Below are positions 21,734 to 59,908 of a stretch of DNA of 64,000 bases, piece by piece (positions within the stretch are counted from its first letter, which is position 1; each line of letters starts with the position of its first letter). A model generated the notes under the pieces. That model did no database searches and was not told the origin of the DNA. It saw only the letters and a list, made by a program, of their open reading frames with translations. The position numbers and the translations under genes are program-made. This stretch comes from Methanomicrobiaceae archaeon (GTDB taxonomy: Archaea > Halobacteriota > Methanomicrobia > Methanomicrobiales > Methanoculleaceae): the NCBI GenBank assembly GCA_020854755.1, contig JAHKLN010000011.1, positions 2,131 through 66,130 of the forward strand, in the 5' to 3' direction.

Positions 21734-22642
21734 ATGCCAGAGAAAGGAGGGGGGATCTCCTATTGCCCGCCGGATATCGGATCGCTTCGGGCTGACGGGT
21801 ATTATCCGGTCGACATGCACCTGCACACCAATCATTCGGACGGCCGCACCGGGATTTGGGATATCCTCCGGTATGCAACAGCAAAAAAGATCGGCGTTGC
21901 AATAACCGATCACAACGAGATACGCGGATCGCTGGAAGCGATATCGAAAAGACCTGAGATCCTGGTGATCCCGGGCATCGAACTTGATACGGAGGAAGGG
22001 CCGCATCTCCTCTTTTATTTCTATACTGCCGGTGATTTGCAGGATTTCTTCCATGATCTTTCCCGTGAGCGAAACCGGCAGACACCCGGTCTTCCAGAGA
22101 ACCTGCCGGTGCTGGAGTGCCTGCAGATTGCCGCAGACTATGACTGCCTCCGGGTAGCCGCCCACCCGTATGGGTACTTCGGCATCAACCGGGGAGTCCT
22201 GAAATGTGTCGAGAAACAGATGCTCCCCGGCGTTCTCGATCATATCGACGGCATAGAAGCCATCTGCGGGGGCATGATGCACGGCCTGAACGCGAAGGCC
22301 ATCGGATATGCACGGCGGCATGAGGTCGCGTATACCGGCGGATCGGATGCCCATATCCTCTCGGACGTCGGCAATGTGGTGACCGCCGGTACGGCCGATA
22401 CGGTGGAAGAGTTTCTGGATGGAATAATCCGGAGGGAGAACCTGGTCGTCGGCGAGCCCGGGGGATATCTGGCAAAGGGTGCGACCGCCGGGGTCATTGC
22501 CTGGAGTTTCGTCCCGTATTCCATCGCCATGATAGGTGCCCGCTGTTCGGTCCGGAGACGCCGGGCATCAGCACTGGTCTCGTCCTGCTGCAGCAGGATT
22601 CCGGCATACTGCGGCACAGAACAGGAAGACGATGGATCATAG
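21734..22642 (+). CDS. PHP-domain metal-dependent phosphoesterase
   Basis: VDMHLHTNHSDG, AITDHN, AAHPYGY and GGSDAH are PHP motifs. Confidence 0.8.
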   Translation: MPEKGGGISYCPPDIGSLRADGYYPVDMHLHTNHSDGRTGIWDILRYATAKKIGVAITDHNEIRGSLEAISKRPEILVIPGIELDTEEGPHLLFYFYTAGDLQDFFHDLSRERNRQTPGLPENLPVLECLQIAADYDCLRVAAHPYGYFGINRGVLKCVEKQMLPGVLDHIDGIEAICGGMMHGLNAKAIGYARRHEVAYTGGSDAHILSDVGNVVTAGTADTVEEFLDGIIRRENLVVGEPGGYLAKGATAGVIAWSFVPYSIAMIGARCSVRRRRASALVSSCCSRIPAYCGTEQEDDGS

Positions 22643-24109
22643 GAGCGGGGAGAAAAGCCTCGATATCGACTTTTTTATCCGGATCGTCATGGGCAGGGCT
22701 GCAAACCGCTCCCGGGTCAGCTCTGTGCAGACCAGGAGATCCTGGTCGAATATCTCCTTGAGCTCCTTTGCGACGGCATGGTCGTACATGATGACATTTG
22801 TCTCGAAATTGAGGTTGAAGCTCCTGACATCCCAGTTGGCGCTCCCCACCGATGCCGCGGCCTCGTCGACGACGATCGTCTTCGCGTGGATAAACCCGTT
22901 GTCATAGGTGTATGCCCGGACGCCTGCGTCCAGGAGCTGTTTGATATACGAATATCCTGCCCAGTAGACGAACGGGTGATCCGGCTTTGAGGGTATCATG
23001 ATCCGCACGTCAATGCCGGACAGGGCGGCCATCCGCAGGGCGTCCATGATACTATCGTCAGGAATGAAATAGGGGGTCTGGATGTATACCGACTCTGTCG
23101 CCAGCGTGATCAGTTTGAGATAGGCCTCCTTGATCGGGCTCCAGTAGGTATCCGGACCGCCCGACACCACCTGCATCGGAAGCCAGGTGTCGGGCCGGGT
23201 GCCGATGTCCGGGAAATAGCGAGGAGAAAACTCGAGTCTTTCCTCTTTTGCTGCATAATTCCAGTCAAGGATGAAGCGAATCTGCATCGAACGTACCGCA
23301 TGGCCTTCCACCACAACAGCCGTATCGCGCCAGGGCGCCCACCTCGGGTCGCGGCTTAAGTTATCGTCGCCGATGTTGAACCCGCCGATGAACCCGACCG
23401 TCCCGTCAATGACTGCGATCTTGCGATGGTTACGGTAATTGAGCCTCGGATGCCGTATGTTTAAGAGAGAGGGGAAGAAGAATGCCAGCTTTCCTCCCGC
23501 CTCGAGATAGGGTGTGTAGAAGGATTTTTTTGGACCTGCCGCACCAAACCCGTCGGCAAGGAACCTGACCGTCACACCCGCGTTTGCCCGCTCGGTCAAT
23601 GCTGCAAAGACTTCGTTGCCGATCCGGTCATCCTTGAGGATATAATATTCCATGTGAATATGGTCCTGCGCCCCCCGGATGGCCTCGAGCAGGGCATCGA
23701 ACTTGTCATTGCCGTCGGTAAAGATCTTCACCCGGTTGTCTGTCGTCACGAGCGCCATGTTGCTCTCCATCAGCATGATCATCATCCGCCTGTACGGATC
23801 AGGGAACGCGTGCGGTTTCGGGATTTCGTATCTGAAGAGGTCCTTCTTCTGGGATTCTATCTGGTAGGTCAGGGCCTCGTCATACTCTTTCTTCCCCCCA
23901 AACATCCTGCCCCGGTAAATACTCTGGCCAACGAAGAGATAGAGGACAAATCCGATGACCGGCAGCAGGAACAGGGCCATCAGCCATGCGATGGTCGAAC
24001 TCGGGTTTTTCCGCTCGATAAAGACCACGGTCAGTGCAAAAAAGATGTTTATCAGGAAGACGATCGGGATGATGAAGTATAGGATGAATTGAAGCGCTCC
24101 GGCCATCAT
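22637..24109 (-). CDS. cls: cardiolipin synthase (PLD superfamily, two HKD motifs)
   Basis: Two N-terminal TM helices. HKD motifs NHRKIAVIDG...GGFNIGD and FIHAKTIVVDEAAASVGSANWDVRS. Confidence 0.9.
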   Translation of the reverse strand: MMAGALQFILYFIIPIVFLINIFFALTVVFIERKNPSSTIAWLMALFLLPVIGFVLYLFVGQSIYRGRMFGGKKEYDEALTYQIESQKKDLFRYEIPKPHAFPDPYRRMMIMLMESNMALVTTDNRVKIFTDGNDKFDALLEAIRGAQDHIHMEYYILKDDRIGNEVFAALTERANAGVTVRFLADGFGAAGPKKSFYTPYLEAGGKLAFFFPSLLNIRHPRLNYRNHRKIAVIDGTVGFIGGFNIGDDNLSRDPRWAPWRDTAVVVEGHAVRSMQIRFILDWNYAAKEERLEFSPRYFPDIGTRPDTWLPMQVVSGGPDTYWSPIKEAYLKLITLATESVYIQTPYFIPDDSIMDALRMAALSGIDVRIMIPSKPDHPFVYWAGYSYIKQLLDAGVRAYTYDNGFIHAKTIVVDEAAASVGSANWDVRSFNLNFETNVIMYDHAVAKELKEIFDQDLLVCTELTRERFAALPMTIRIKKSISRLFSPLL

Positions 24110-24229
24110 GTCTTTTCACTGTCAGCACAGCTAGGTTGATCCTCCCTGTATAGAATGCTAGCGAAGTTTCAGACCCGAACAGAACGCCACTGACATACCG
24201 AAGAGGGCAGACATCACCGCTCGCCCGCG

Positions 24230-24601
24230 TTCCCATCGCCCCCCCGCTCTCCGTTTTGGCCACCGTGAAACAGGCCGTCTTTATAAATCGCGGGAAACGA
24301 ACCACGCACCGAGAGCAGATCGGGCGCAACGGCGGAGAGGCGAGGCCGGAGCCGACGTTCCAGACCCTGGTTACCCATTGCTCAAACTCGGTGTCATGGG
24401 TGACGCCCCGTTCCAGGGTGATCGGCTCGTACTTCGCCCGGCCCGGCGATTTTCGCAAGGAGGGGGGCTCCTCTTCCCGGTGGTCGGCGTGAGCGCACCG
24501 ATCTTTGGTACTCCCGCAACGTACCGGCCGTCCCGCTTCACGCGGAACTTGAAGTTCTTATAGGGATCGAACCTCTGCGGATTGACGCTGAAATCGACCA
24601 T
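24230..24601 (-). pseudogene. frameshifted, 3'-decayed copy of the eCIS tube gene
   Basis: MVDFSVNPQRFDPYKNFKFRVKRDGRYVAGVPKIGAL (ORF 24371..24601) continues in another frame as KSPGRAKYEPITLERGVTHDTEFEQWVTRVWNVGSGL (within ORF 23880..24458). Compare the intact tube at 49569..50096. The lower boundary is approximate. Confidence 0.7.
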
Positions 24602-24614
24602 ACCGACTCGCCTC

Positions 24615-25045
24615 CTATGTCTGCATCTCTCCGGCGATCTGCTGGATCTTGATGATCACGAACTCTGCGGGCTCGAGCGGTGCAAAACCGACGACGATGT
24701 TGACCATCCCCCGGATGCCGCCAAACAGGCTTTCTTCGATGAAGAGGGCCATCCTGCGCACCGGGATGTATCTGTACTCGTCGGCGAACCGGTCGCCTTC
24801 CTGCAGCGTCCGCGCGCCCAGCAGTGCTGCATCGAGGCCTGCAGGAGACTTCCAGACCCCCGGGTTGCATCCGTCCCGGCAACGATGCCGGCGATCATGC
24901 CGCAGGGCGCGAAGGTATCGAGCGGTCCACCCGGTTCGGGTCCGCCTGGATCACCCGGGGGAAGAAGAGGGCGGCATTCCGGGTCTCTTTCCCGGTCAGG
25001 CCCAGAGTCGCCAGGCCGTTCCGCGCGGACGCGGCATGCCGCCGC
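24615..25045 (-). pseudogene. 5'-truncated, internally deleted copy of the eCIS sheath gene (3' part only)
   Basis: ARNGLATLGLTGKETRNAALFFPRVIQADPNR matches sheath residues ~309-340. DNA next to the stop (24615..24617) is near-identical to 50033..50180. Antisense ORF 24582..25088 parallels 50077..51129 with two blocks missing. The upper boundary is approximate. Confidence 0.7.
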
Positions 25046-25198
25046 CCAGCACTCTTCCGGGAGGGGGCACCATCATTATCATGATTAAGGGCGACAGTAA
25101 TCGGTACATACCAATCCGTAACACTGGCGAAATATGAGAGCATATCGAACACACAAGATACTTTCGCACATCAGCGGGCTTACTGGCGGGCGGCCCAT

Positions 25199-27118
25199 AT
25201 GACGTCACCTGACAATGCCACCGGATCCGAAGGCATCCAGCGCAGACGCCGGCTGCTGGCTGCCGCTCCCGTTTTTCTGCTGACGCTGGTCTTTGCTGTG
25301 CAGTTCTTCGTGGATATTCCCATCGATGTAATCGCTCCCTTTCAGGCAGCGCTCAACATCCTCCTGAACGTGGGGTTCATTGTTCTGGCTGCTCTCGTGG
25401 CCTGGGGCGTGGTGAAGATCGGCCGGCTGCAGCTCGTCTGGATGGGATCCGGCATCCTCGTGCTGGGTCTGGCCATTCTGACTGCGAATCTGGTCGGAAG
25501 CCCGATCAGCCTGAATACGGGTATACAGATACAGAATATCGGCGCTCTTCTCGCCGGTTCCCTCCATTTCATCGGCGCCCTGATGGCAGTCTTCTCGATC
25601 GGCCTGCTGAGGCCGGATCGGCGGCAGCGGACAATCGCTCTCGCGGCCGGCTACGGCGGCGGCATTGCGGCTGTAGTACTCGTCGTCCTCCTGAGCGCAG
25701 CTTCGGCGCTCCCCGTTTTCTTCATCCCCGGAGAGGGCGGAACCCCGATCCGGCAGGCGGTCATCACCCTCGCTGCAGTTCTTTTTGCCGCCTCCGCCCT
25801 GCTGCTATTCGTGCAGTACTCCCGGTCGCGCTCGTCGTTCCTGTACATGTACAGCCTGGCGCTGACTTTTCTGAGCCTCGGGCAGCTCGCATACCTGTTT
25901 GCCGTCACATCAGGCGACATCATGTCATGGATCGGCAGGGTGGGGCAGTGGGGCGCCTCCATCTACTTCCTGATCGCCCTGTTCCTGCTGTTCCACCTCT
26001 CGCGCAGCCGCCTTGGTGACGTTCACCACCTGCTGGACGGCATCTTTCCCCCCTCCAGCGAAGGCTATAGGCTCCTGATTGAGGCATCCCCCGATGCAAT
26101 CATCGGCCTGGATGCCGAAGGGCGCGTGCTGGTATGGAACTCCGCCGCCGAGAAGATACTCGGCTACAGCAGCAGAGAGGCAATGGGGCGGCCTCTCGGG
26201 GATCTGCTGGGCATCCGGCTATCCTGGCGTGATAGCGGCGCCTCCGCCAATCCCGGCACGCAGGAGTCAGAAGAGCTCCTGCTGCGACGGCAGGACGGCA
26301 GAGAAGTGTGGCTGGGCATCTCGGTGGCTCACGGTGCTGTTCGCGGGCATCCGGTTGCCACCGTCAACATACGGGATATCACCAGGCGGAAGCGTGCAGA
26401 GCTATCGCTCCGCGAGAGCGAAGAGAGGTACCGCCAGCTCCACCGGCAGCTGGAGATCGCAAACAGGGAGACGAGCCTCTACCTCGACATCCTCACCCAC
26501 GATATCGGCAACACCGAGAACGTCTCGAACCTCTACGACGATATCCTCGTCGAGACGGTGGAGGGGGAGGCGCTCGGCTACGCGGAGAAACTCCGGCGGA
26601 GCATCAAAAAGAGCATCGAGATACTCGATACCGTCTCAAAGATTCGCCGGATCCATCAGGCTTCACCCGATCTCAGGCCGGTCGATCTTGATGCAGCGAT
26701 CCGCGACGGGGTCCGGGAGTTCCCTGACAGGCCCGTCTACTATGACGGCATTCCCCTCTGGGTGTGGGCGGACGACCTCCTCGGTGTGGTAACGAGCAAC
26801 CTGATCGGCAACGCCGTCAGGCACGGCGGGCCGGATGTCCGGATTGCCGTCAGGGTAGAGGGGCTGGAGGGTGAGGTCCTGGTCTCGGTCGAGGATACCG
26901 GACCCGGGATCCCGGCTGCCGGGAAGCTTGAAGTCTTCCGGCGGTATGAGCAGCAGAAGCGGGGAGTTGGCGAAGGGCTCGGGCTCTATCTGGTGCAGAT
27001 CCTCATCGAGCGCTACGGCGGGCGCGTCTGGGCCGATGACCGGGTGCCCGGGCGTCCGGAGGAGGGGGCGGCGTTCCGGTTCACGCTCCGGCAGGCGGAT
27101 CAGGATGGAGAGGACTGA
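25199..27118 (+). CDS. membrane sensor histidine kinase (multi-TM N-terminus, PAS, HisKA-like THDIxN, HATPase_c)
   Basis: ~8 hydrophobic helices, then PAS (PDAIIGLDAEGRVLVWNSAAEKILGY), phospho-acceptor LDILTHDIGNTEN, and N/G boxes NLIGNAVRHG, DTGPGI, GLGLYLV. Confidence 0.85.
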   Translation: MTSPDNATGSEGIQRRRRLLAAAPVFLLTLVFAVQFFVDIPIDVIAPFQAALNILLNVGFIVLAALVAWGVVKIGRLQLVWMGSGILVLGLAILTANLVGSPISLNTGIQIQNIGALLAGSLHFIGALMAVFSIGLLRPDRRQRTIALAAGYGGGIAAVVLVVLLSAASALPVFFIPGEGGTPIRQAVITLAAVLFAASALLLFVQYSRSRSSFLYMYSLALTFLSLGQLAYLFAVTSGDIMSWIGRVGQWGASIYFLIALFLLFHLSRSRLGDVHHLLDGIFPPSSEGYRLLIEASPDAIIGLDAEGRVLVWNSAAEKILGYSSREAMGRPLGDLLGIRLSWRDSGASANPGTQESEELLLRRQDGREVWLGISVAHGAVRGHPVATVNIRDITRRKRAELSLRESEERYRQLHRQLEIANRETSLYLDILTHDIGNTENVSNLYDDILVETVEGEALGYAEKLRRSIKKSIEILDTVSKIRRIHQASPDLRPVDLDAAIRDGVREFPDRPVYYDGIPLWVWADDLLGVVTSNLIGNAVRHGGPDVRIAVRVEGLEGEVLVSVEDTGPGIPAAGKLEVFRRYEQQKRGVGEGLGLYLVQILIERYGGRVWADDRVPGRPEEGAAFRFTLRQADQDGED

Positions 27119-27195: not shown

Positions 27196-27755
27196 CGGGC
27201 TCGATGCCATCAGAAAGGACGTCCTGGCCTTCGTCCCCGGTATCCCGCTTGATGCAGCCCGCTCCGGGCAGAGATCCTCCCGCGAGCCTCCTTGTCTCCC
27301 GGGGGCAGGAAGAAGTGGGGCATGCCATACCTCCGGACGGTGCAGTATGCTGCGGGTAAAACGGATTTACAACGAACCTTCCGGGGACGATGGCCTCCGG
27401 ATCCTCGTCGACCGGCTCTGGCCGAGGGGCGTCCCGAAGGAGAAGGAGATCGCGCCGAGCCACGAGCTGCGGCGCTATTCCGCGGGGGCTTTGCATGAAA
27501 CCCCATAATGCCTTGAGGCCACAGGCATACAGCAGGAACATGGACGGTGACGCTCACCACCCAGTTCATATAAAACGCCCATGAAGCCGTTTTACGGCCA
27601 CAGGCGCAACGGATGAAAATTCATGAGTTTTCTGGAGCTCCCAGTACAGTGGGCCGAGGGAGACATCCTCATGGGGGTGGGGGGACCGGGGGGGAGACCC
27701 CTCCCCGAAAGCCGCCTCCCCCCGTGAGGATGGCCGGTGGGAAGCCGTATATGGG
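27196..27755 (+). repeat. direct-repeat copy A (deleted version of 53435..54383)
   Basis: Near-identical from CGGGCTCGATGCCATCAGAAAGGACG onward. Relative to copy B it lacks 27 bp inside the DUF488 ORF and ~340 bp (the DUF488 3' part plus downstream sequence). Similarity ends near GGGAAGCCGTATATGGG. Confidence 0.75.
27347..27508 (+). pseudogene. truncated DUF488 gene copy
   Basis: [43 protein letters not shown] then diverges to a stop. The intact paralog is 53587..53931. Confidence 0.6.
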
Positions 27756-28150
27756 AGAGCATATGAAGGACGTCCGTATCCACGGGCCGGTTCGATTTTT
27801 CAAAGAAAACCGGGATGAGGCCCGCATCGGCCGCATGCCTAGCGGCGGAGAGCGGGATCGGATTTGCCGGGAGGATGCTGGAAGAGCAGCGGTTCATCCT
27901 CGAGAGGGGACGGGCTGTACCTCCCCCGCAGCCGGATCGGGCAGAAGAGCATCGATCAGGAGTAGCAGTACGGCTTACGGCAATGAAGGATGGGAATGAG
28001 GTGGCCGGACTCGAACCGCATAGCAGACAACTCAGCGCATCGATCTTTTTGGTTTCACGGCATCTCAGCACTACTGCTGCATGTATGACGCGATTCCTGA
28101 TAACCGCATACTCTGCTTTACTCCGCCATTGCCCCTACCAGGGGTGTGCC

Positions 28151-49568: not shown

Positions 49569-50096
49569 CTAGCCGGGCGGTTCGGTGAAGGTGGGCTCGG
49601 TCGGTTCGGTCACCGCATAATCGCGCTCCCAGCCCTCGTTCTCCAGTTTCAACGTCTGGATTGCGACTGCATTGGCATTGGCGTCCAGGTCGGGAATGGC
49701 CTGGTACTCCGAGACCCAGCACCGGTATACTTTATACGCGATCGCAAGCTGCCCTGCCTCGTTGTATATCTCGATGATGATATCCTTGCGGAAATCCTTC
49801 AGCGAGACCTCGGAGCCGAGGCCGGAGCCGTAGTTCCAGACCTTGTTTGCCCATTGCTCAAACTCGACGTCATGGGTGACGCCCCGTTCAAGGGTGATCG
49901 GCTCATACTTCGTCCGGCCCGGCGATTTTCTCGAGGAGGAGGGATCTCCCCCTTCCCGGTGCTCCACCACCTCGGTGGTCCGCTTGAGCGCACCGATCTT
50001 CGATACTCCCGCAACGTACCGGCCGTCCCATTTCACGCGAAACTTGAAGTTCTTATAGGGATCGAACCTCTGCGGATTGACGCTGAAATTGACCAT
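49569..50096 (-). CDS. contractile-tail tube protein (T4 gp19-like)
   Basis: MVNFSVNPQRFDPYKNFKFRVKWDGRYVAGVSKIGALKRTTEVVEHREGGDPSSSRKSPGRTKYEPITLERGVTHD. GGAGG lies 10 nt upstream. Confidence 0.95.
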   Translation of the reverse strand: MVNFSVNPQRFDPYKNFKFRVKWDGRYVAGVSKIGALKRTTEVVEHREGGDPSSSRKSPGRTKYEPITLERGVTHDVEFEQWANKVWNYGSGLGSEVSLKDFRKDIIIEIYNEAGQLAIAYKVYRCWVSEYQAIPDLDANANAVAIQTLKLENEGWERDYAVTEPTEPTFTEPPG

Positions 50097-50109
50097 ACTG
50101 ACTCGCCTC

Positions 50110-51723
<1,614 letters not shown>

Positions 51724-52504
51724 CAATTTTCTCCTTTCTTTTTAGTAGTTCAGACCTCGAATATGCAGGGGTCTTCCTGAATCGCCATCCTGGCGGCAGA
51801 TATCGGGACGGCCGCGGCGCTGTCCACGGCATCGGATCAAAAAGAGCATGGCAGGTGCCTGATCGAACAGCACAACGCCTCCGGAGCTCGATAGTACATG
51901 CGGTGACCCGGGTAAGACCGGTTCATCTCCTCTGCCATCGGTTGTGCATGTACGATGCCCCCCGTCCATGTCCGCGGCGGTAAGGAGTGGTTGGGTTAAA
52001 CCCGCGTCTTCTGGCTGTACAATCAACGCAATGTCCGTTTCCCCTGTGTTAATCAATACTGCGATTATACCGCAGGCGTCCACACTCCAATCTCCGGCAG
52101 ATGAAATCGCCGGACAACCCCGGAACCCTGTCGTTGAATGCCCGATCGGTCTGTTTCGGCGTGGATCCCTACACACATCACTATACAGTGCCCTTAAAAA
52201 AACCTTTTGGTTATCAGAAATACCGCTGATATCCTGAATTACTCTTTGCACAAAAATTTCTCCGCACCCTCTCTCCGGGCGCCCGTTCAGGAGGCAGTCA
52301 TGCCGGAAGGGATCAGAGTCCCTGACCGGGCCGATGTGAACCCCCGGTGCGACCTCTGCCCGGGAGGTGGCGGATCAACCGGGGAAAATGCCGCGATCTC
52401 CTCAAACACGCCGGTGTAACCCGAACAGTGAGAACAGGCGTACCCCCCGGGGGCATCGGTGGACGGATCGTATCCGGCGGATTTGGATGTGCCGGATAGG
52501 TGAG

Positions 52505-53045
52505 ATGAATGTGGATAATGGACCCGCCAGAGCAATCCTCCAGAGGGACGGCACGCCATATGCAATCGCGCCGGGAACCCCGCAGGGATCGTCATCCCGG
52601 AGCATCCGGAGAGCATCATGAAGGTCTTCAGGCGCTACGGCATTCCCGTTATCGGGATGACGTTGGGGCAGCGGATGGTGCTCGCGGGCATCAGGGAAGA
52701 GGACGTCGAGAGCATCTGGACGGAACCCGGGATGACCGTGGGCCAGGCGGCCGCACCCTGCGTCCACTACGTCCGGGCATGCTCCGGGACGGTGACCGCA
52801 GACATGGCACGCAGGACTTGCCGGGCCTCGGGCTCGGGGTCGAGGAACTGTACCCGGGCATGAACCTGCCGGCAGAGGCCAAGATGGAGATCCCGGGATG
52901 CTCCCGCTGCTGTGGCGAGCGCTACCTCAGGGATATCGGGGTCGTCGGGAGCGCGAAAGGCTGGACGGTCCTCTTCGGGGGCGACTCCGGCGGATGCCCC
53001 CGGATCGGCGATACCGCCGCCAGAGATATCATAAAACGCCCATGA
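52505..53045 (+). pseudogene. small nitrite/sulfite-reductase-like (Dsr-LP-like) gene with at least two frameshifts, 3' end abutting a repeat element
   Basis: Three frames join as MNVDNGPARAILQRDGTPYAIAPGTPQG / IVIPEHPESIMKVFRRYGIPVIGMTLGQRMVLAGIREEDVESIWTEPGMTVGQAAAPCVHYVRACSGT / ...GTQDLPGLGLGVEELYPGMNLPAEAKMEIPGCSRCCGERYLRDIGVVGSAKGWTVLFGGDSGGCPRIGD. The family call comes from motif resemblance only. Confidence 0.45.
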
Positions 53046-53311
53046 AGCCCGCGAGCGGGCTCCAGGTTCAACTGATAAAACACACATGAGGAGCTGCATC
53101 AGGCTTAACACACGAAAACGACAGGTTGTAAGGTTCCAGCCCGGTATCGGCTACGAGGAGAGTACCTCGGGTATCGGGAGGTTTTTCATGGAAAAATTCT
53201 AGAGCCTCCATCGATACCCGGGCCCGGTTTTCTCTGACTGTCCCGGTGGAGTGGACCGGGGAGGGGGAGACCCCCTCCCCTGCGAGGATAGCCGGTGAGA
53301 TGCCGTATCCG
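53031..53311 (+). repeat. copy of a short dispersed intergenic repeat
   Basis: The 19-mer ATAAAACGCCCATGAAGCC is identical at 27569..27587 and 53031..53049. Both copies continue to a GGGGAG...CTCCCC G/C hairpin and a G(T/C)GAGGAT(G/A)GCCGGTG(G/A)GA(A/T)GCCGTAT block. Confidence 0.6.
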
Positions 53312-53434
53312 GGACGCAAAGAATAGGGCGGCAGGAACCTTCCATTTTAGAAATCGGCTTTATCTTCATGTGAAAGAGCAGGTCCTCTATCCGGGCCGCC
53401 GCCTCCTCGAGCACCATCAGGATAACGCTCAGAC

Positions 53435-54383
53435 CGGGCTCGATGCCATCAGAAAGGACGTCCTGGCCTTCGTCCCCGGTATCCCGCTTGATGCAGCCCG
53501 CTCCGGGCAGAGATCCTTCCGCGAGCCTCCTTGTCTCCCGGGGGCAGGATTAAGTGGGGGCATGCCATACTTCCGGACGGTGCAGTATGCTGCGGATAAA
53601 ACGGATTTACGACGAACCTTCCGGGGACGATGGCCTCCGGATCCTCGTCGACCGGCTCTGGCCGAGAGGCGTCTCGAAGGAGAAGGCGAAGATCGACCGG
53701 TGGGAGAAGGAGATCGCGCCGAGCCACGAGCTGCGGCGCTGGTTCGGGCACGATCCGGCGAAGTGGGAGGAGTTTCTGCGGCGGTACCGGGCCGAACTCA
53801 GGGACAGGGAAGACCTGCTCGACCGCCTCCGTCAGGAGGAGAGCGAAGGGACCGTCACGCTCCTCTACGCCGCCCGGGATGGAGAGCACAGCAACGCCGC
53901 GGCGCTGGTGCGGTTTATCAGAGGGGATTAGGCTGCACGCCGGCGGTCATCGACCCTTTCATCCGTCTTTTGGGCGATGGACGGGATGGGAGGTCAGGTC
54001 GGGATATGGACGAGGGCATTTCTCCGCCGCACCGGGAGAAACCCTCCGGCGGCAACCGTAGCAGGCAGCGCTCTTTTGCAGGGTTTTTGCATGAAACCAC
54101 ATGATGCCGCGGGGGCGCAGGCACCAGAACGAAGGTGGGTGATGCTGCTCACCACCCGTTTTCATGTAAAACCGCGTATGAAGCCCCCCGGGGAGGGGCT
54201 GCAGGCTCAATCGATTAAAATTCCTGACGCTGCACCGATACGCACTGTCCTGTTTTCGCAGACTATACCGGGACAGTGGACCGAGGGGGACATCCCAACG
54301 AGGGGTGGGACCGAGGAGGGGGTCTCCCCCTCCCCGTCCGCCCCTCCCCCGGATGAAGTGTCGGTGGGAAGCCGTGTACGGGG
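53435..54383 (+). repeat. direct-repeat copy B (full-length; carries the intact DUF488 gene)
   Basis: See copy A (27196..27755). The offset between copies is 26239 bp at the left edge. Confidence 0.75.
53587..53931 (+). CDS. DUF488-family protein
   Basis: Start at ATG 53587. [63 protein letters not shown]...VTLLYAARD. Confidence 0.85.
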
Positions 54384-54691
54384 TCAACTGATTTGAGCGG
54401 CGAGAGGCTTCCATTTACAGATGCCGGCTTAATTTTCCTGTGAAACTGCTCATGAAGCCCCCCGGATTGGGCATAGGCGCACCGGATAAAAATTCTTGAG
54501 CTGATATCGATACCCCGGAGCATCGCGGATTCTGTAGTTCCTGGATCTCGCGGGCCACCGGAACGTAACTATCGAGAAAACGGCTCCAAAATATCGGCAC
54601 AGAACTCAGGGATCTTCATGGCTGTGCTTGTGCCGCTCGGCAACACACTGTTCATATGGCGCCGCGGACATCTCCGCTGCGTTCATATCAG

Positions 54692-57179: not shown

Positions 57180-58544
57180 ATGCAGGAGTCAGAGCGTCCA
57201 CCCGATCCGAATGCTCCGCGGCTGCCACACGAGGAGGATCTCCTCCGCGTGCTGGAGGAGCTCTACGGAGGATTCGCCGATGCGAAGGAGACGCTTTCGG
57301 CGATCCGGAAGGGCGAGGTCGACGCCTTCCTCGTCTCCGCGGAGGACGGGGAGAAGATCTACACCTTAAAGACCGCCGAGCATCCCTACCGCGTGCTGAT
57401 CGAGCAGATGCGGGAAGGTGCGGCGATTCTGTCTGCCGGCGGCACCATCCTCTACAGCAACGAAAGCTGCGCCCGGCTGCTCGGGATGCCGCTCGAGAAG
57501 GTGATGGGGGAGTCGATCCACCGGTTCATTGCTCCTGCCGATGCGGTGCGTTTCCGGAGGATGATGGAGGCGGGGGATCTTTTTGGCAGTGCGGTCGAGA
57601 GCACGCTGCAGACGCCCGGAGGACGGCAGGTGCCGGTGCACCTCTCGCTGAAACTGCTGCAGTTGGACGGGGTGCAGATCTACTCCCTGGTCGCAACCGA
57701 TCTGACAGAGCGGGTACAGGCAGAAGAGACCCTGCGCAGGGCTTATGAAGAGCTCGAGGACCGGGTGGAAGAGCGGACCGCCGAACTGGCTGAGTACAAC
57801 GACCGGCTCCGGATCGAGATCGATGAGCGCAGGCGGGCCGAAGAGGCGCTTCGCTGCCGCACCGGCGATCTCATCCGGCAGAGCCGGGAGATCGAAGAGG
57901 CGCAGCGCATGGCGAACCTCTACCTGGACATCATGACGCATGATATCAGGAACGCCAACAACGTCTCGGGGATATACGCTGATCTTCTCGTCGATCTGCT
58001 CGAAGAGAATCTCAGGGAGTATGCGGAGCGGCTCCAGGCCAGCATCAAGAGGAGCACCGAGATCCTCCAGAACGTCGCCACCATACGGCGGATACATGCA
58101 GGTTCTCCCGACCTGGTGCCGGTTAATCTTGACGCCGTCATCAGGGAGGAGATCCGGAACTATCCCGGCGCAGCAGTCCGGTACGACCGGACGAACGCCA
58201 CTGTCCGGGCGGACGGCCTCCTCCCGGTGATCTTCACGAACCTGATCGGCAACGCCGTCAGGCACGCCGGATCCGGCGCCGATATTACCATCCGTGTGGA
58301 AGACCGGGACGGCGAGGTGCTCGTTTCGGTCGAGGATACCGGTCCGGGCGTGTCGGATGGGATGAAAGGAAAACTCTTCAACCGGTTCGAGCGCGACGGG
58401 AACATTGGCCGCGGAGAAGGCCTCGGCCTCTTCATCGTCCGGACGCTCGTTGAGCGCTACGGCGGCAGGATCTGGGCCGACGACCGCGTGCCCGGCCGCC
58501 CGGAGGAAGGGGCGGCGTTCCGGTTCACGCTCCGGAAGGCCTGA
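57180..58544 (+). CDS. cytoplasmic PAS histidine kinase (THDIxN type)
   Basis: PAS (REGAAILSAGGTILYSNESCARLLG), LDIMTHDIRNANN, NLIGNAVRHAG, DTGPGV, GLGLFIV. The C-terminal 30 aa are nearly identical to the kinase at 25199..27118. Confidence 0.85.
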   Translation: MQESERPPDPNAPRLPHEEDLLRVLEELYGGFADAKETLSAIRKGEVDAFLVSAEDGEKIYTLKTAEHPYRVLIEQMREGAAILSAGGTILYSNESCARLLGMPLEKVMGESIHRFIAPADAVRFRRMMEAGDLFGSAVESTLQTPGGRQVPVHLSLKLLQLDGVQIYSLVATDLTERVQAEETLRRAYEELEDRVEERTAELAEYNDRLRIEIDERRRAEEALRCRTGDLIRQSREIEEAQRMANLYLDIMTHDIRNANNVSGIYADLLVDLLEENLREYAERLQASIKRSTEILQNVATIRRIHAGSPDLVPVNLDAVIREEIRNYPGAAVRYDRTNATVRADGLLPVIFTNLIGNAVRHAGSGADITIRVEDRDGEVLVSVEDTGPGVSDGMKGKLFNRFERDGNIGRGEGLGLFIVRTLVERYGGRIWADDRVPGRPEEGAAFRFTLRKA

Positions 58545-58615
58545 ACCGGCAGGTAACTTCGAAATATTTCGTAATTACAGACAGGTTTAACGGATCGGCA
58601 TGCCAATATCCGGTC

Positions 58616-59908
58616 ATGAAACGCATATCACCGACGATTTTTGTCCTGGCAGTGATCCTCGCGCTCGGCTGCATCGTTGCGGGGTGCGCCGATATGCAGG
58701 GAGCGATATCAGCGAGATCTGCCGGGGAGGAGACGCTGGATGATCAGTCGGCGGACGCTATCGATAGCGTGGCTGCGGGGAACAACCGGTTCGCCTGCGA
58801 TCTGTACCGCAATCTGGCCGACGATCCGAAATACGCGGAAACCAACCTCTTCTTCTCGCCCTACAGCATCTCATCGGCTCTTGCGATCACCTACGAGGGC
58901 GCCCGCGGCACGACTGCCGACGAGATCCGATCGGTGCTCCACCTGCCGGAGAACGATACCCTGCGGCGGGAAGGGTTCTCCGGGATCAACGCCCGGATGA
59001 ACAGCGTGGATGCCGCCTGCACCCTCCGGACGGCGAACGCACTCTGGGCGGAGGAGACGTATCAGTTCCTGCCGGAGTATATCGAGACGGCAGAGCGCTA
59101 TTACGGCGCGAACGCAACAAACATCGACTTCATCAACGCTCCCGAGGAGTCGCGCAGCACCATCAACCGCTGGGTGGAGGAGCGGACCGAAGAGAAGATC
59201 CGGGATCTGCTGCCGCCCGGCTCGATCGACCCGGTGACAAGGCTGGTGATCACAAACGCCATATACTTCGAGGGGACGTGGGTGAAGCAGTTCGATGAGA
59301 ATCTCACACGGGACGATGATTTCCGGGTTGCACCGGAAAGGGCCGTGCGTGTCCCGATGATGCAGCGGACCGGCGAAGATGCCGTCTTTAACTATACGGA
59401 GACCGGGACCGTCCAGGTGCTCGGGATGCCGTATGCGCACGAGAGCGGACGGCAACTCTCGATGCTCGTCATCCTTCCGAACGACGAAAACCTGACGGCC
59501 GCCGAAGCGGCTCTTGATCCGGAGCAGATCGGGGAGCTCCGGCAGTCGCTGGTCTCGCAGCGCGTGGACGTCTTCTTCCCGAAATTCACGCTCGAGACGG
59601 AGTACTCCCTTCCGGAGACGCTTGCGGCGATGGGGATGCCGACGGCGTTTTCCGGGGCGGCCGATCTCTCGGGTATGGACGGCACGAGAGACCTCTTCAT
59701 CAGCGATGTCATCCACAAGGCGTTTGTCGACGTGGACGAGGAGGGCACCGAGGCCGCGGCCGCGACCGCGGTTGTCGTCCGCCTGGTATCTGCGCCCCAG
59801 AACAATGATATTCCCGTCTTCAGGGCGGATCACCCCTTCGTCTTCCTCATTCTCGATGACGATACCGGAAACATCCTCTTCATAGGAAGGGTGGCGAACC
59901 CGGCGTGA
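58616..59908 (+). CDS. serpin-family protease inhibitor with signal/lipobox-like N-terminus
   Basis: LALGCIVAGC. NLFFSPYSISSALAITYEGARGTTADEI. Hinge and reactive-centre region DVDEEGTEAAAATAVVVRLVSAP...FRADHPFVFLI. Confidence 0.9.
   Translation: MKRISPTIFVLAVILALGCIVAGCADMQGAISARSAGEETLDDQSADAIDSVAAGNNRFACDLYRNLADDPKYAETNLFFSPYSISSALAITYEGARGTTADEIRSVLHLPENDTLRREGFSGINARMNSVDAACTLRTANALWAEETYQFLPEYIETAERYYGANATNIDFINAPEESRSTINRWVEERTEEKIRDLLPPGSIDPVTRLVITNAIYFEGTWVKQFDENLTRDDDFRVAPERAVRVPMMQRTGEDAVFNYTETGTVQVLGMPYAHESGRQLSMLVILPNDENLTAAEAALDPEQIGELRQSLVSQRVDVFFPKFTLETEYSLPETLAAMGMPTAFSGAADLSGMDGTRDLFISDVIHKAFVDVDEEGTEAAAATAVVVRLVSAPQNNDIPVFRADHPFVFLILDDDTGNILFIGRVANPA

Follow-up and report, generated by a model that had tools for sequence, protein, structure and literature searches.

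Four Photorhabdus virulence cassettes (PVC) lie in tandem in the chromosome of P. luminescens TT01 (PMC2717986). Among archaea, the contractile injection system (CIS) of Halogeometricum borinquense has been studied experimentally (PMC11566945), and catalogues of eCIS loci include archaea (PMC11297309). The locus described here is contained in a 64-kb window (the whole stretch of DNA that was analyzed) and belongs to a host of the Methanoculleus family, as the kinase homologs are named Methanoculleus. The marker mcrA was present in four of four relatives and gave no match in the source bin, which is 81% complete. Like the H. borinquense CIS and the catalogued archaeal eCIS, the intact operon is phage-tail-like and contractile, with genes for a sheath, a gp19-like tube, a Pvc16-like cap, an AAA ATPase, a baseplate J protein and an eCIS_core cargo. 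The segment under study is a dead fragment beside this operon.

Two kinds of described loci resemble this arrangement. As in the PVC arrays of P. luminescens TT01, copying of a phage-tail-like injection locus has taken place in direct orientation at a single site of the chromosome, and the relic is found just past the distal end of the intact operon, where the second tandem unit would begin. Unlike in TT01, a 0.74-kb two-gene fragment and a 0.28-kb host-gene fragment are what survives here, the host is archaeal, and there is neither a second functional cassette nor an alternative payload. A tandem eCIS/PVC array has at least two complete cassettes, and this genome has one intact sheath gene. 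Like duplicated (non-processed) pseudogenes of prokaryotes, the relic is clearly homologous to a functional parent elsewhere in its genome, is truncated on either side, has suffered frameshifts as well as internal deletions flanked by short repeats, and carries substitutions at residues that are otherwise invariant. It differs from typical members of that class in its mosaic divergence, in its three mid-size deletions that are all in frame, and in forming with its parent a direct-repeat bracket around a functional operon of 25 kb. Judged from its sequence, the segment is most likely a non-functional pseudogene relic of a lineage-internal duplication, which took in the upstream end of the eCIS and the adjoining host DNA.

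Homology and boundaries of the sheath-tube relic

Comparison of positions 24000-25300 with the window by blastn gave three matches, collinear and on the same strand, that lie at the start of the eCIS operon, with E-values from 8e-33 to 6e-142. Block A (25026-24812/24800 versus 50802-50586/50574) is 84.8% identical over 217 nt with two 1-nt gaps, block B (24819-24702 versus 50485-50368) is 84.7% identical over 118 nt, and block C (24717-24337 versus 50212-49813) is 87% identical over 400 columns, with gaps of 16 and 3 nt. The relic is on the minus strand, with blastn core ends at 24337 and 25026 that tblastx pushed out to 24325 and 25064. It lies about 25.5 kb from its parent (49801-50840), in equal orientation and with 85-87% nucleotide identity. 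A preliminary description of this DNA had noticed a segment similar to 49.7-50.8 kb, some 25 kb away in the same orientation, and the pairwise alignment bears this out with three collinear blocks in place of short chance similarity. Its left boundary, 24230, was about 100 nt too far left, as 24230-24324 lies outside the homology.

Both parents are intact genes with Pfam matches, and the relic thus has homology to functional genes of its own genome. The tube gene (49569-50096, minus strand) matches PF06841 with an E-value of 1.7e-47, and the sheath gene (50110-51726, minus strand) matches PF04984 and PF17482. The tube protein is 77-88% identical to tube proteins in loci of Bacteroidota, Proteobacteria, Acidobacteriota and Chloroflexota, while for the sheath encoded next to it, identity to the sheaths of those bacterial loci is just 48-58%. 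By this comparison the tube gene is unusually strongly conserved.

Lesions and reading frames

The tube pseudogene (24325-24601, minus strand; blastn and tblastx) represents roughly the first 95 codons of the gp19-like tube gene. Its GGAGG site, its ATG and about 39 in-frame codons are kept, after which deletions of 16 and 3 nt shift the frame. The copy stops at codon 95 of 175, and codons 96-175 are absent. The ORF called in this part (24371-24601, minus strand, 76 aa) gave no Pfam match. Next to it, positions 24602-24614 (minus strand) align with the sheath-tube intergenic spacer of the parent and preserve its GGAGG site.

The sheath pseudogene (24615-25064, minus strand; blastn and tblastx) covers residues ~296/304 to 538 of the parent and lacks residues 1 to about 300. 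The native stop codon is still present at 24615-24617. There are in-frame deletions of 108 nt (36 codons) and 171 nt (57 codons) and, besides these, two 1-nt frameshifts, and the remaining sequence matches the sheath of the same genome in four pieces over three different frames, at 65-84% amino-acid identity. No Pfam family was matched at E<=0.01 by the sheath relic frames (a 110-aa open frame at 24618-24947 and a 40-aa piece). A tail sheath carries PF04984 and PF17482 over a continuous frame, and a tail tube matches PF06841 at full length, about 134 profile positions in one frame; neither is found in the relic. Truncation, frameshifts and deletions are disabling lesions of the kind seen in duplicated pseudogenes. 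The preliminary description had read the tube copy as an intact start of 38 codons followed by a frameshift and 3' decay, and the sheath copy as beginning near residue 305 with two internal deletions, and on both counts the alignment agrees with it.

The mid-size coding deletions, 108 and 171 nt in the sheath and 24 nt in the DUF488 relic described below, each have a length divisible by three, unlike the small deletions of 1, 1 and 16+3 nt. That all three are in frame may be due to chance, at about 1 in 27.

Constraint and divergence

Amino-acid differences between the copies were polarized by outgroups, 40 homologs for the sheath and 9 for the tube. In 30 of the 37 differences it is the relic that has changed, and many of these changes are at positions invariant in the homologs. 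In the sheath, the intact copy has the homolog state in 16 of 21 differences, 9 of these at invariant or nearly invariant sites, and the relic has it in 2. For the tube, it is the intact copy that agrees with the outgroups at 14 of the 16 differing positions. Even within the seemingly intact first 39 codons, the tube relic has changes at three invariant residues (W23R, S32P and K38T).

The dN/dS ratio is about 0.9 in the tube, 0.55 in the end of the sheath and about 0.24 in sheath blocks A and B, where dS is higher (about 0.35). Changes in the sheath blocks number 26 at the third codon position, 14 at the first and 7 at the second. Constraint on the copy is relaxed, as in duplicated pseudogenes, with a lower ratio in blocks A and B (0.24). 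The latter value hints that the sheath copy may have been under selection for a time, or that parts of the relic have different histories. As a whole, the substitution pattern fits neutrally decaying DNA.

Divergence from the parents is unequal, being 14.7% in blocks A and B, 8.7% in block C and 2.8% in the DUF488 copy (Fisher p 0.013 and 0.0018). These values, roughly 15%, 9% and 3%, suggest either that the copies later underwent gene conversion or that more than a single event took place. They count against a single event alone, which does not predict unequal divergence. Gene conversion within the sheath/tube pair was considered separately and set aside, as a 49-nt identical run is estimated to be within chance at 8.7% divergence.

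A second relic derived from DUF488

A second repeat pair was exposed by comparing other assemblies with the window. The upstream region and about the first 40 codons of a DUF488 gene are found at 27196-27476 (plus strand; ORF 27347-27508, 53 aa), on the far side of the kinase gene and collinear with the sheath-tube relic. Its parent comprises the intact DUF488 gene (53587-53931) and the DNA upstream of it (together 53435-53931, plus strand; Pfam and alignment). Positions 27196-27476 and 53435-53740 are 97% identical, with 8 mismatches in 281 (2.8% divergence). The relic has a 24-nt in-frame deletion between GGAGAAGG repeats and lacks the 3' part of the gene, with GCGCT microhomology at this deletion of 332 nt. 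DUF488 Pfam models still match it, though only partially. The two relics keep the order and the orientation of their parents, with a spacing of 2.17 kb versus 2.63 kb in the parents.

DUF488 is single-copy in 21 of the 24 Methanoculleus genomes sampled, and it also stands beside a NIR_SIR-like gene in the relative G013. Its usual single copy and this adjacency mark DUF488 as host DNA, and host DNA was thus duplicated along with the eCIS DNA. In the window, a NIR_SIR (sulfite/nitrite reductase 4Fe-4S) fragment is found at 52509-53045, in the 1.2-kb gap between the start of the eCIS operon and DUF488. It appears to be a decayed remnant of the host gene that adjoins DUF488 in G013.

The JGI 3300009388 contig (L085) differs from the window at 13 positions over 14 kb, and 8 of these cluster in 53462-53611. 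At seven of the eight, within 53518-53611, the contig has exactly the letter found in the truncated DUF488 copy at 27.3 kb. The patch is either a gene-conversion tract between the copies or assembler cross-talk between repeats that are 97% identical.

Nearest relatives of the copy

Besides the intact gene, this genome has sheath-like sequence only in the relic, and a tblastx search of the genome with the whole operon turned up no remnant of further eCIS genes outside 24325-25064. One of 40 related genomes has a sheath homolog, at 61% identity, and the best sheath match among 185,579 species genomes (one per GTDB species) is 58%. The closest non-self sheath among 5.8 billion proteins reaches 69% amino-acid identity, versus about 85% for the relic, whose nearest relative by far is therefore the resident intact copy. 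The relic had no match in 50,697 phage records, and neither an intact second copy nor a closer foreign eCIS was detected in the 40 related genomes, the 185,579 species genomes or the 5.8 billion proteins.

Flanking genes and spacer

The relic adjoins a PLD-type cardiolipin-synthase-like gene, cls (22637-24109, minus strand), as the preliminary description had it; the gene carries two PLDc_2 domains and one PLDc_N domain. Between the relic and the start of cls there is a spacer (24110-24324), of which a genome search found no further copy elsewhere in the genome. It contains a TATA-like ATTCTATA box, 40-47 nt upstream of the cls ATG and downstream of the relic, which is a candidate cls promoter. 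The same unique spacer has at 24280-24287, 50 nt outside the tube end of the relic, a perfect palindrome, TTTATAAA, that resembles the archaeal TATA-box motif. This box could fire either way, and rightward transcription from it would be antisense to the relic. The host being archaeal, the promoter listing covers AT-rich TATA-like boxes only.

On the other side, a gene for a MASE3-PAS histidine kinase (25199-27118, plus strand; domain matches) is located between the two relics. It stands where the intact copy has the 5' part of the sheath gene, the ORF 51742-52251, the NIR_SIR fragment and the repeat copy R2. The homology borders of both relics are sharp, and the 2.2-kb segment between them holds the kinase gene alone. 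Orthologs of this kinase are full-length, with 63-71% amino-acid identity, and have other neighbors in every relative and in a contig of a sister taxon. In the relatives, PHP-cls and NIR_SIR-DUF488 are the only conserved pairs; the kinase gene and the upstream side of cls vary everywhere.

The window harbors another kinase gene, linked to kai (57180-58544). The last 45 residues of the kinases encoded at 25199-27118 and 57180-58544 are 82% identical (26963-27097 versus 58407-58541) and the rest about 54%. A serpin-like gene is found 3' of the ortholog of the first kinase in the sister-taxon contig (L104, 3536-3878) and 3' of the second kinase in the window (58533-58896). These two observations hint at a possible recombination between the kinase genes.

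A dispersed repeat family at the borders

Three copies of a dispersed repeat, family R, are present in the 64-kb window, all of them at borders of the eCIS/DUF488 structure. R1 (27482-27764) begins where the homology of the DUF488 relic stops, at the distal end of the eCIS operon. R2 (53064-53375) is located between the NIR_SIR fragment and DUF488, and R3 (54080-54565), which has two units, between DUF488 and kaiC. In the bin there are about 254 merged loci of the family, comprising 53 kb or 2.6% of the sequence, and 102 of the 246 contig ends have one of them no more than 300 nt away. The units are about 120-135 nt long, some with a GGAGGGGG..CCCCCTCC palindrome, and the copies are 70-82% alike. 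The family had no Rfam match, and the relatives have only faint 45-nt matches to it.

The pair 27469-27755 / 54065-54382 (65% identical) was considered as a third collinear piece of the duplication and rejected, since it belongs to the dispersed repeat with its roughly 250 loci in the genome. R1 is 65% identical to R3 and 72-82% identical to other family members; being no closer to R3 than to these, the repeats were not simply co-duplicated. Family R may have promoted the rearrangements.

Origin of the relics

The duplicated material includes host DNA upstream of the operon, which argues for an intragenomic duplication of the resident locus and not for a second foreign eCIS. In the history that we propose, a segment of at least 3.9 kb, from the 5' end of the tube gene to the 5' end of DUF488 (49813-53740), would have given rise to a copy beyond the distal end of the operon. 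The simplest version would be that the entire unit of about 26 kb was duplicated in tandem, this segment included, for which the PVC units of P. luminescens TT01 offer a precedent; re-integration of a circularized unit would lead to the same topology as a tandem duplication. The copy would then have lost everything past tube codon 95, and its middle would have been replaced by the sharp-bordered 2.2-kb segment with the kinase gene. Slippage-type deletions of 108, 171, 24 and 332 nt between short repeats, together with small frameshifts, would account for the remaining damage. Today the segment is probably best regarded as an inert spacer that separates cls from the kinase gene.

The preliminary description had proposed that either a second eCIS operon or a duplicated 5' part of the present one once existed here. 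The second alternative stands, as the relic is paralogous to the 5' part, of which it is a decayed duplicate, and is accompanied by a collinear DUF488 relic. A complete second operon is not demonstrated, given that no other eCIS gene left a relic in the genome. The wider proposal of past duplication or recombination at the locus gains from the second collinear relic and from a sheath relic closer to the resident gene than any foreign sheath.

Alternatively, the two pieces may be separate captures, one of 0.7 kb from the sheath and tube genes and one of 0.28 kb from DUF488, taken up as templated filler at the junctions of a translocated kinase segment, so that a second sheath-tube pair or operon never existed. 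Both pieces are indeed sharp-bordered and flank a 2.2-kb kinase segment deprived of the neighbors it has in relatives, their divergence from the parents differs five-fold (13% versus 2.8%), and the genome has no other eCIS relic. We consider such captures unlikely, however. A single copied segment predicts the conserved order, orientation and spacing (2.17 versus 2.63 kb), which two captures would produce in about 1 of 8 cases. The low divergence of DUF488 could be explained by gene conversion, as suggested by the patch matching the other copy in one assembly, and the excess of third-position changes in the sheath blocks (26 versus 14 and 7) also speaks against filler DNA.

A lineage-internal duplication, which we therefore favor, leaves relics and parents as direct-repeat brackets around the 25-kb operon. 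That these brackets are still active as recombination substrates, through their exact runs of 49 and 83 nt, seems very unlikely to us; the only hint of it is the conversion-like DUF488 patch in one assembly. If they were active, a population could amplify, lose or patch-convert the eCIS, which would amount to a copy-number or presence switch, the relic would be a reservoir of sheath/tube variants, and family R, present at all three borders, could promote such events.

An origin of the relic in a second eCIS, acquired independently from another organism as a xenolog and later replaced or deleted, is highly improbable. The patchy presence of eCIS in the family (1 of 40 relatives), the somewhat higher G+C content of the eCIS (66% versus a genome mean of 60.5%) and the sheath dS of about 0.35 with low dN/dS would be compatible with such an acquisition. 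Against it, the closest foreign sheath has 69% amino-acid identity compared with about 85% for the relic, and the collinear second relic is host DNA (DUF488) and contains no eCIS DNA.

Possible roles and authenticity of the relic

Several functions might be imagined for which the relic would be kept: an RNA that acts on the sheath/tube mRNA as antisense or decoy, a promoter or leader of cls, or a recombination partner for loss of the eCIS or for sheath/tube variation. If transcribed from the plus strand, the relic would be 85-87% complementary to the intact mRNA, and the palindromic TTTATAAA box lies 50 nt beyond its end. The copies have exact runs in common (49 nt in sheath/tube and 83 nt in DUF488), and a conversion-like patch between the DUF488 copies is present in one assembly. 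However, downstream of the relic cls is preceded by a TATA-like box of its own, substitutions seem to have accumulated neutrally, nearly clonal assemblies (0-4 differences in 16 kb) give no signal of conservation, and an eCIS-less or recombinant contig was not found. A search for structured RNAs or a tRNA attachment site detected no Rfam match and no tRNA in the window. Retention for any of these functions is very improbable, and the antisense or regulatory RNA that the preliminary description had offered as a speculative alternative finds no support in these results.

The source genome is a metagenome bin of 2.01 Mb in 123 contigs, and its structure at this locus was compared with that in independent assemblies. 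The spacer between cls and the kinase gene (24110-25198, 1089 nt, relic included) is 100% identical in GCA_028715245.1 and in JGI 3300009388. Four Logan single-run assemblies with the same cls gene all stop at window position 24575. This position falls within a 49-nt stretch beginning at 24546, the longest over which relic and intact tube gene are identical, and de Bruijn assembly of a sample that contains both copies should break there. Independent assemblies have 0-4 differences from the window in 12-16 kb and are nearly clonal; they therefore confirm the structure and carry no signal of conservation. All contigs with identical tube, sheath, cls or DUF488 proteins have the same arrangement, and among them there was no eCIS-less or recombinant contig. 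An assembly artefact or chimeric contig, which the preliminary description had named as the result that would overturn it and which a fragmented bin (123 contigs, 81% complete) with assembly-breaking repeats might lead one to suspect, can be dismissed as practically impossible, as it would not yield a copy 13% diverged and internally deleted, nor a relic-bearing spacer identical in two assemblies from other samples, nor four further assemblies that break within the shared exact repeat just as expected with both copies real.

Significance for the locus and its host

The relic is an ordinary duplication scar and a footnote to the history of the locus; it represents no new mechanism, function or system, and it says nothing about the function of the injection system. 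Archaeal contractile injection systems are already catalogued, and what is new here is the history of this locus only. For annotation, the small ORFs called in this region (76, 48 and 53 aa) should be regarded as pseudogene debris. In this uncultured Methanoculleus relative, the eCIS locus has been resident long enough for a duplication that included host flank, for 9-15% decay and for several deletions. The duplication and this extent of decay argue against a very recent acquisition of the eCIS. The operon is now bracketed by direct repeats and accompanied by lineage-specific dispersed repeats, an arrangement that bears on how archaeal genomic islands are rearranged.
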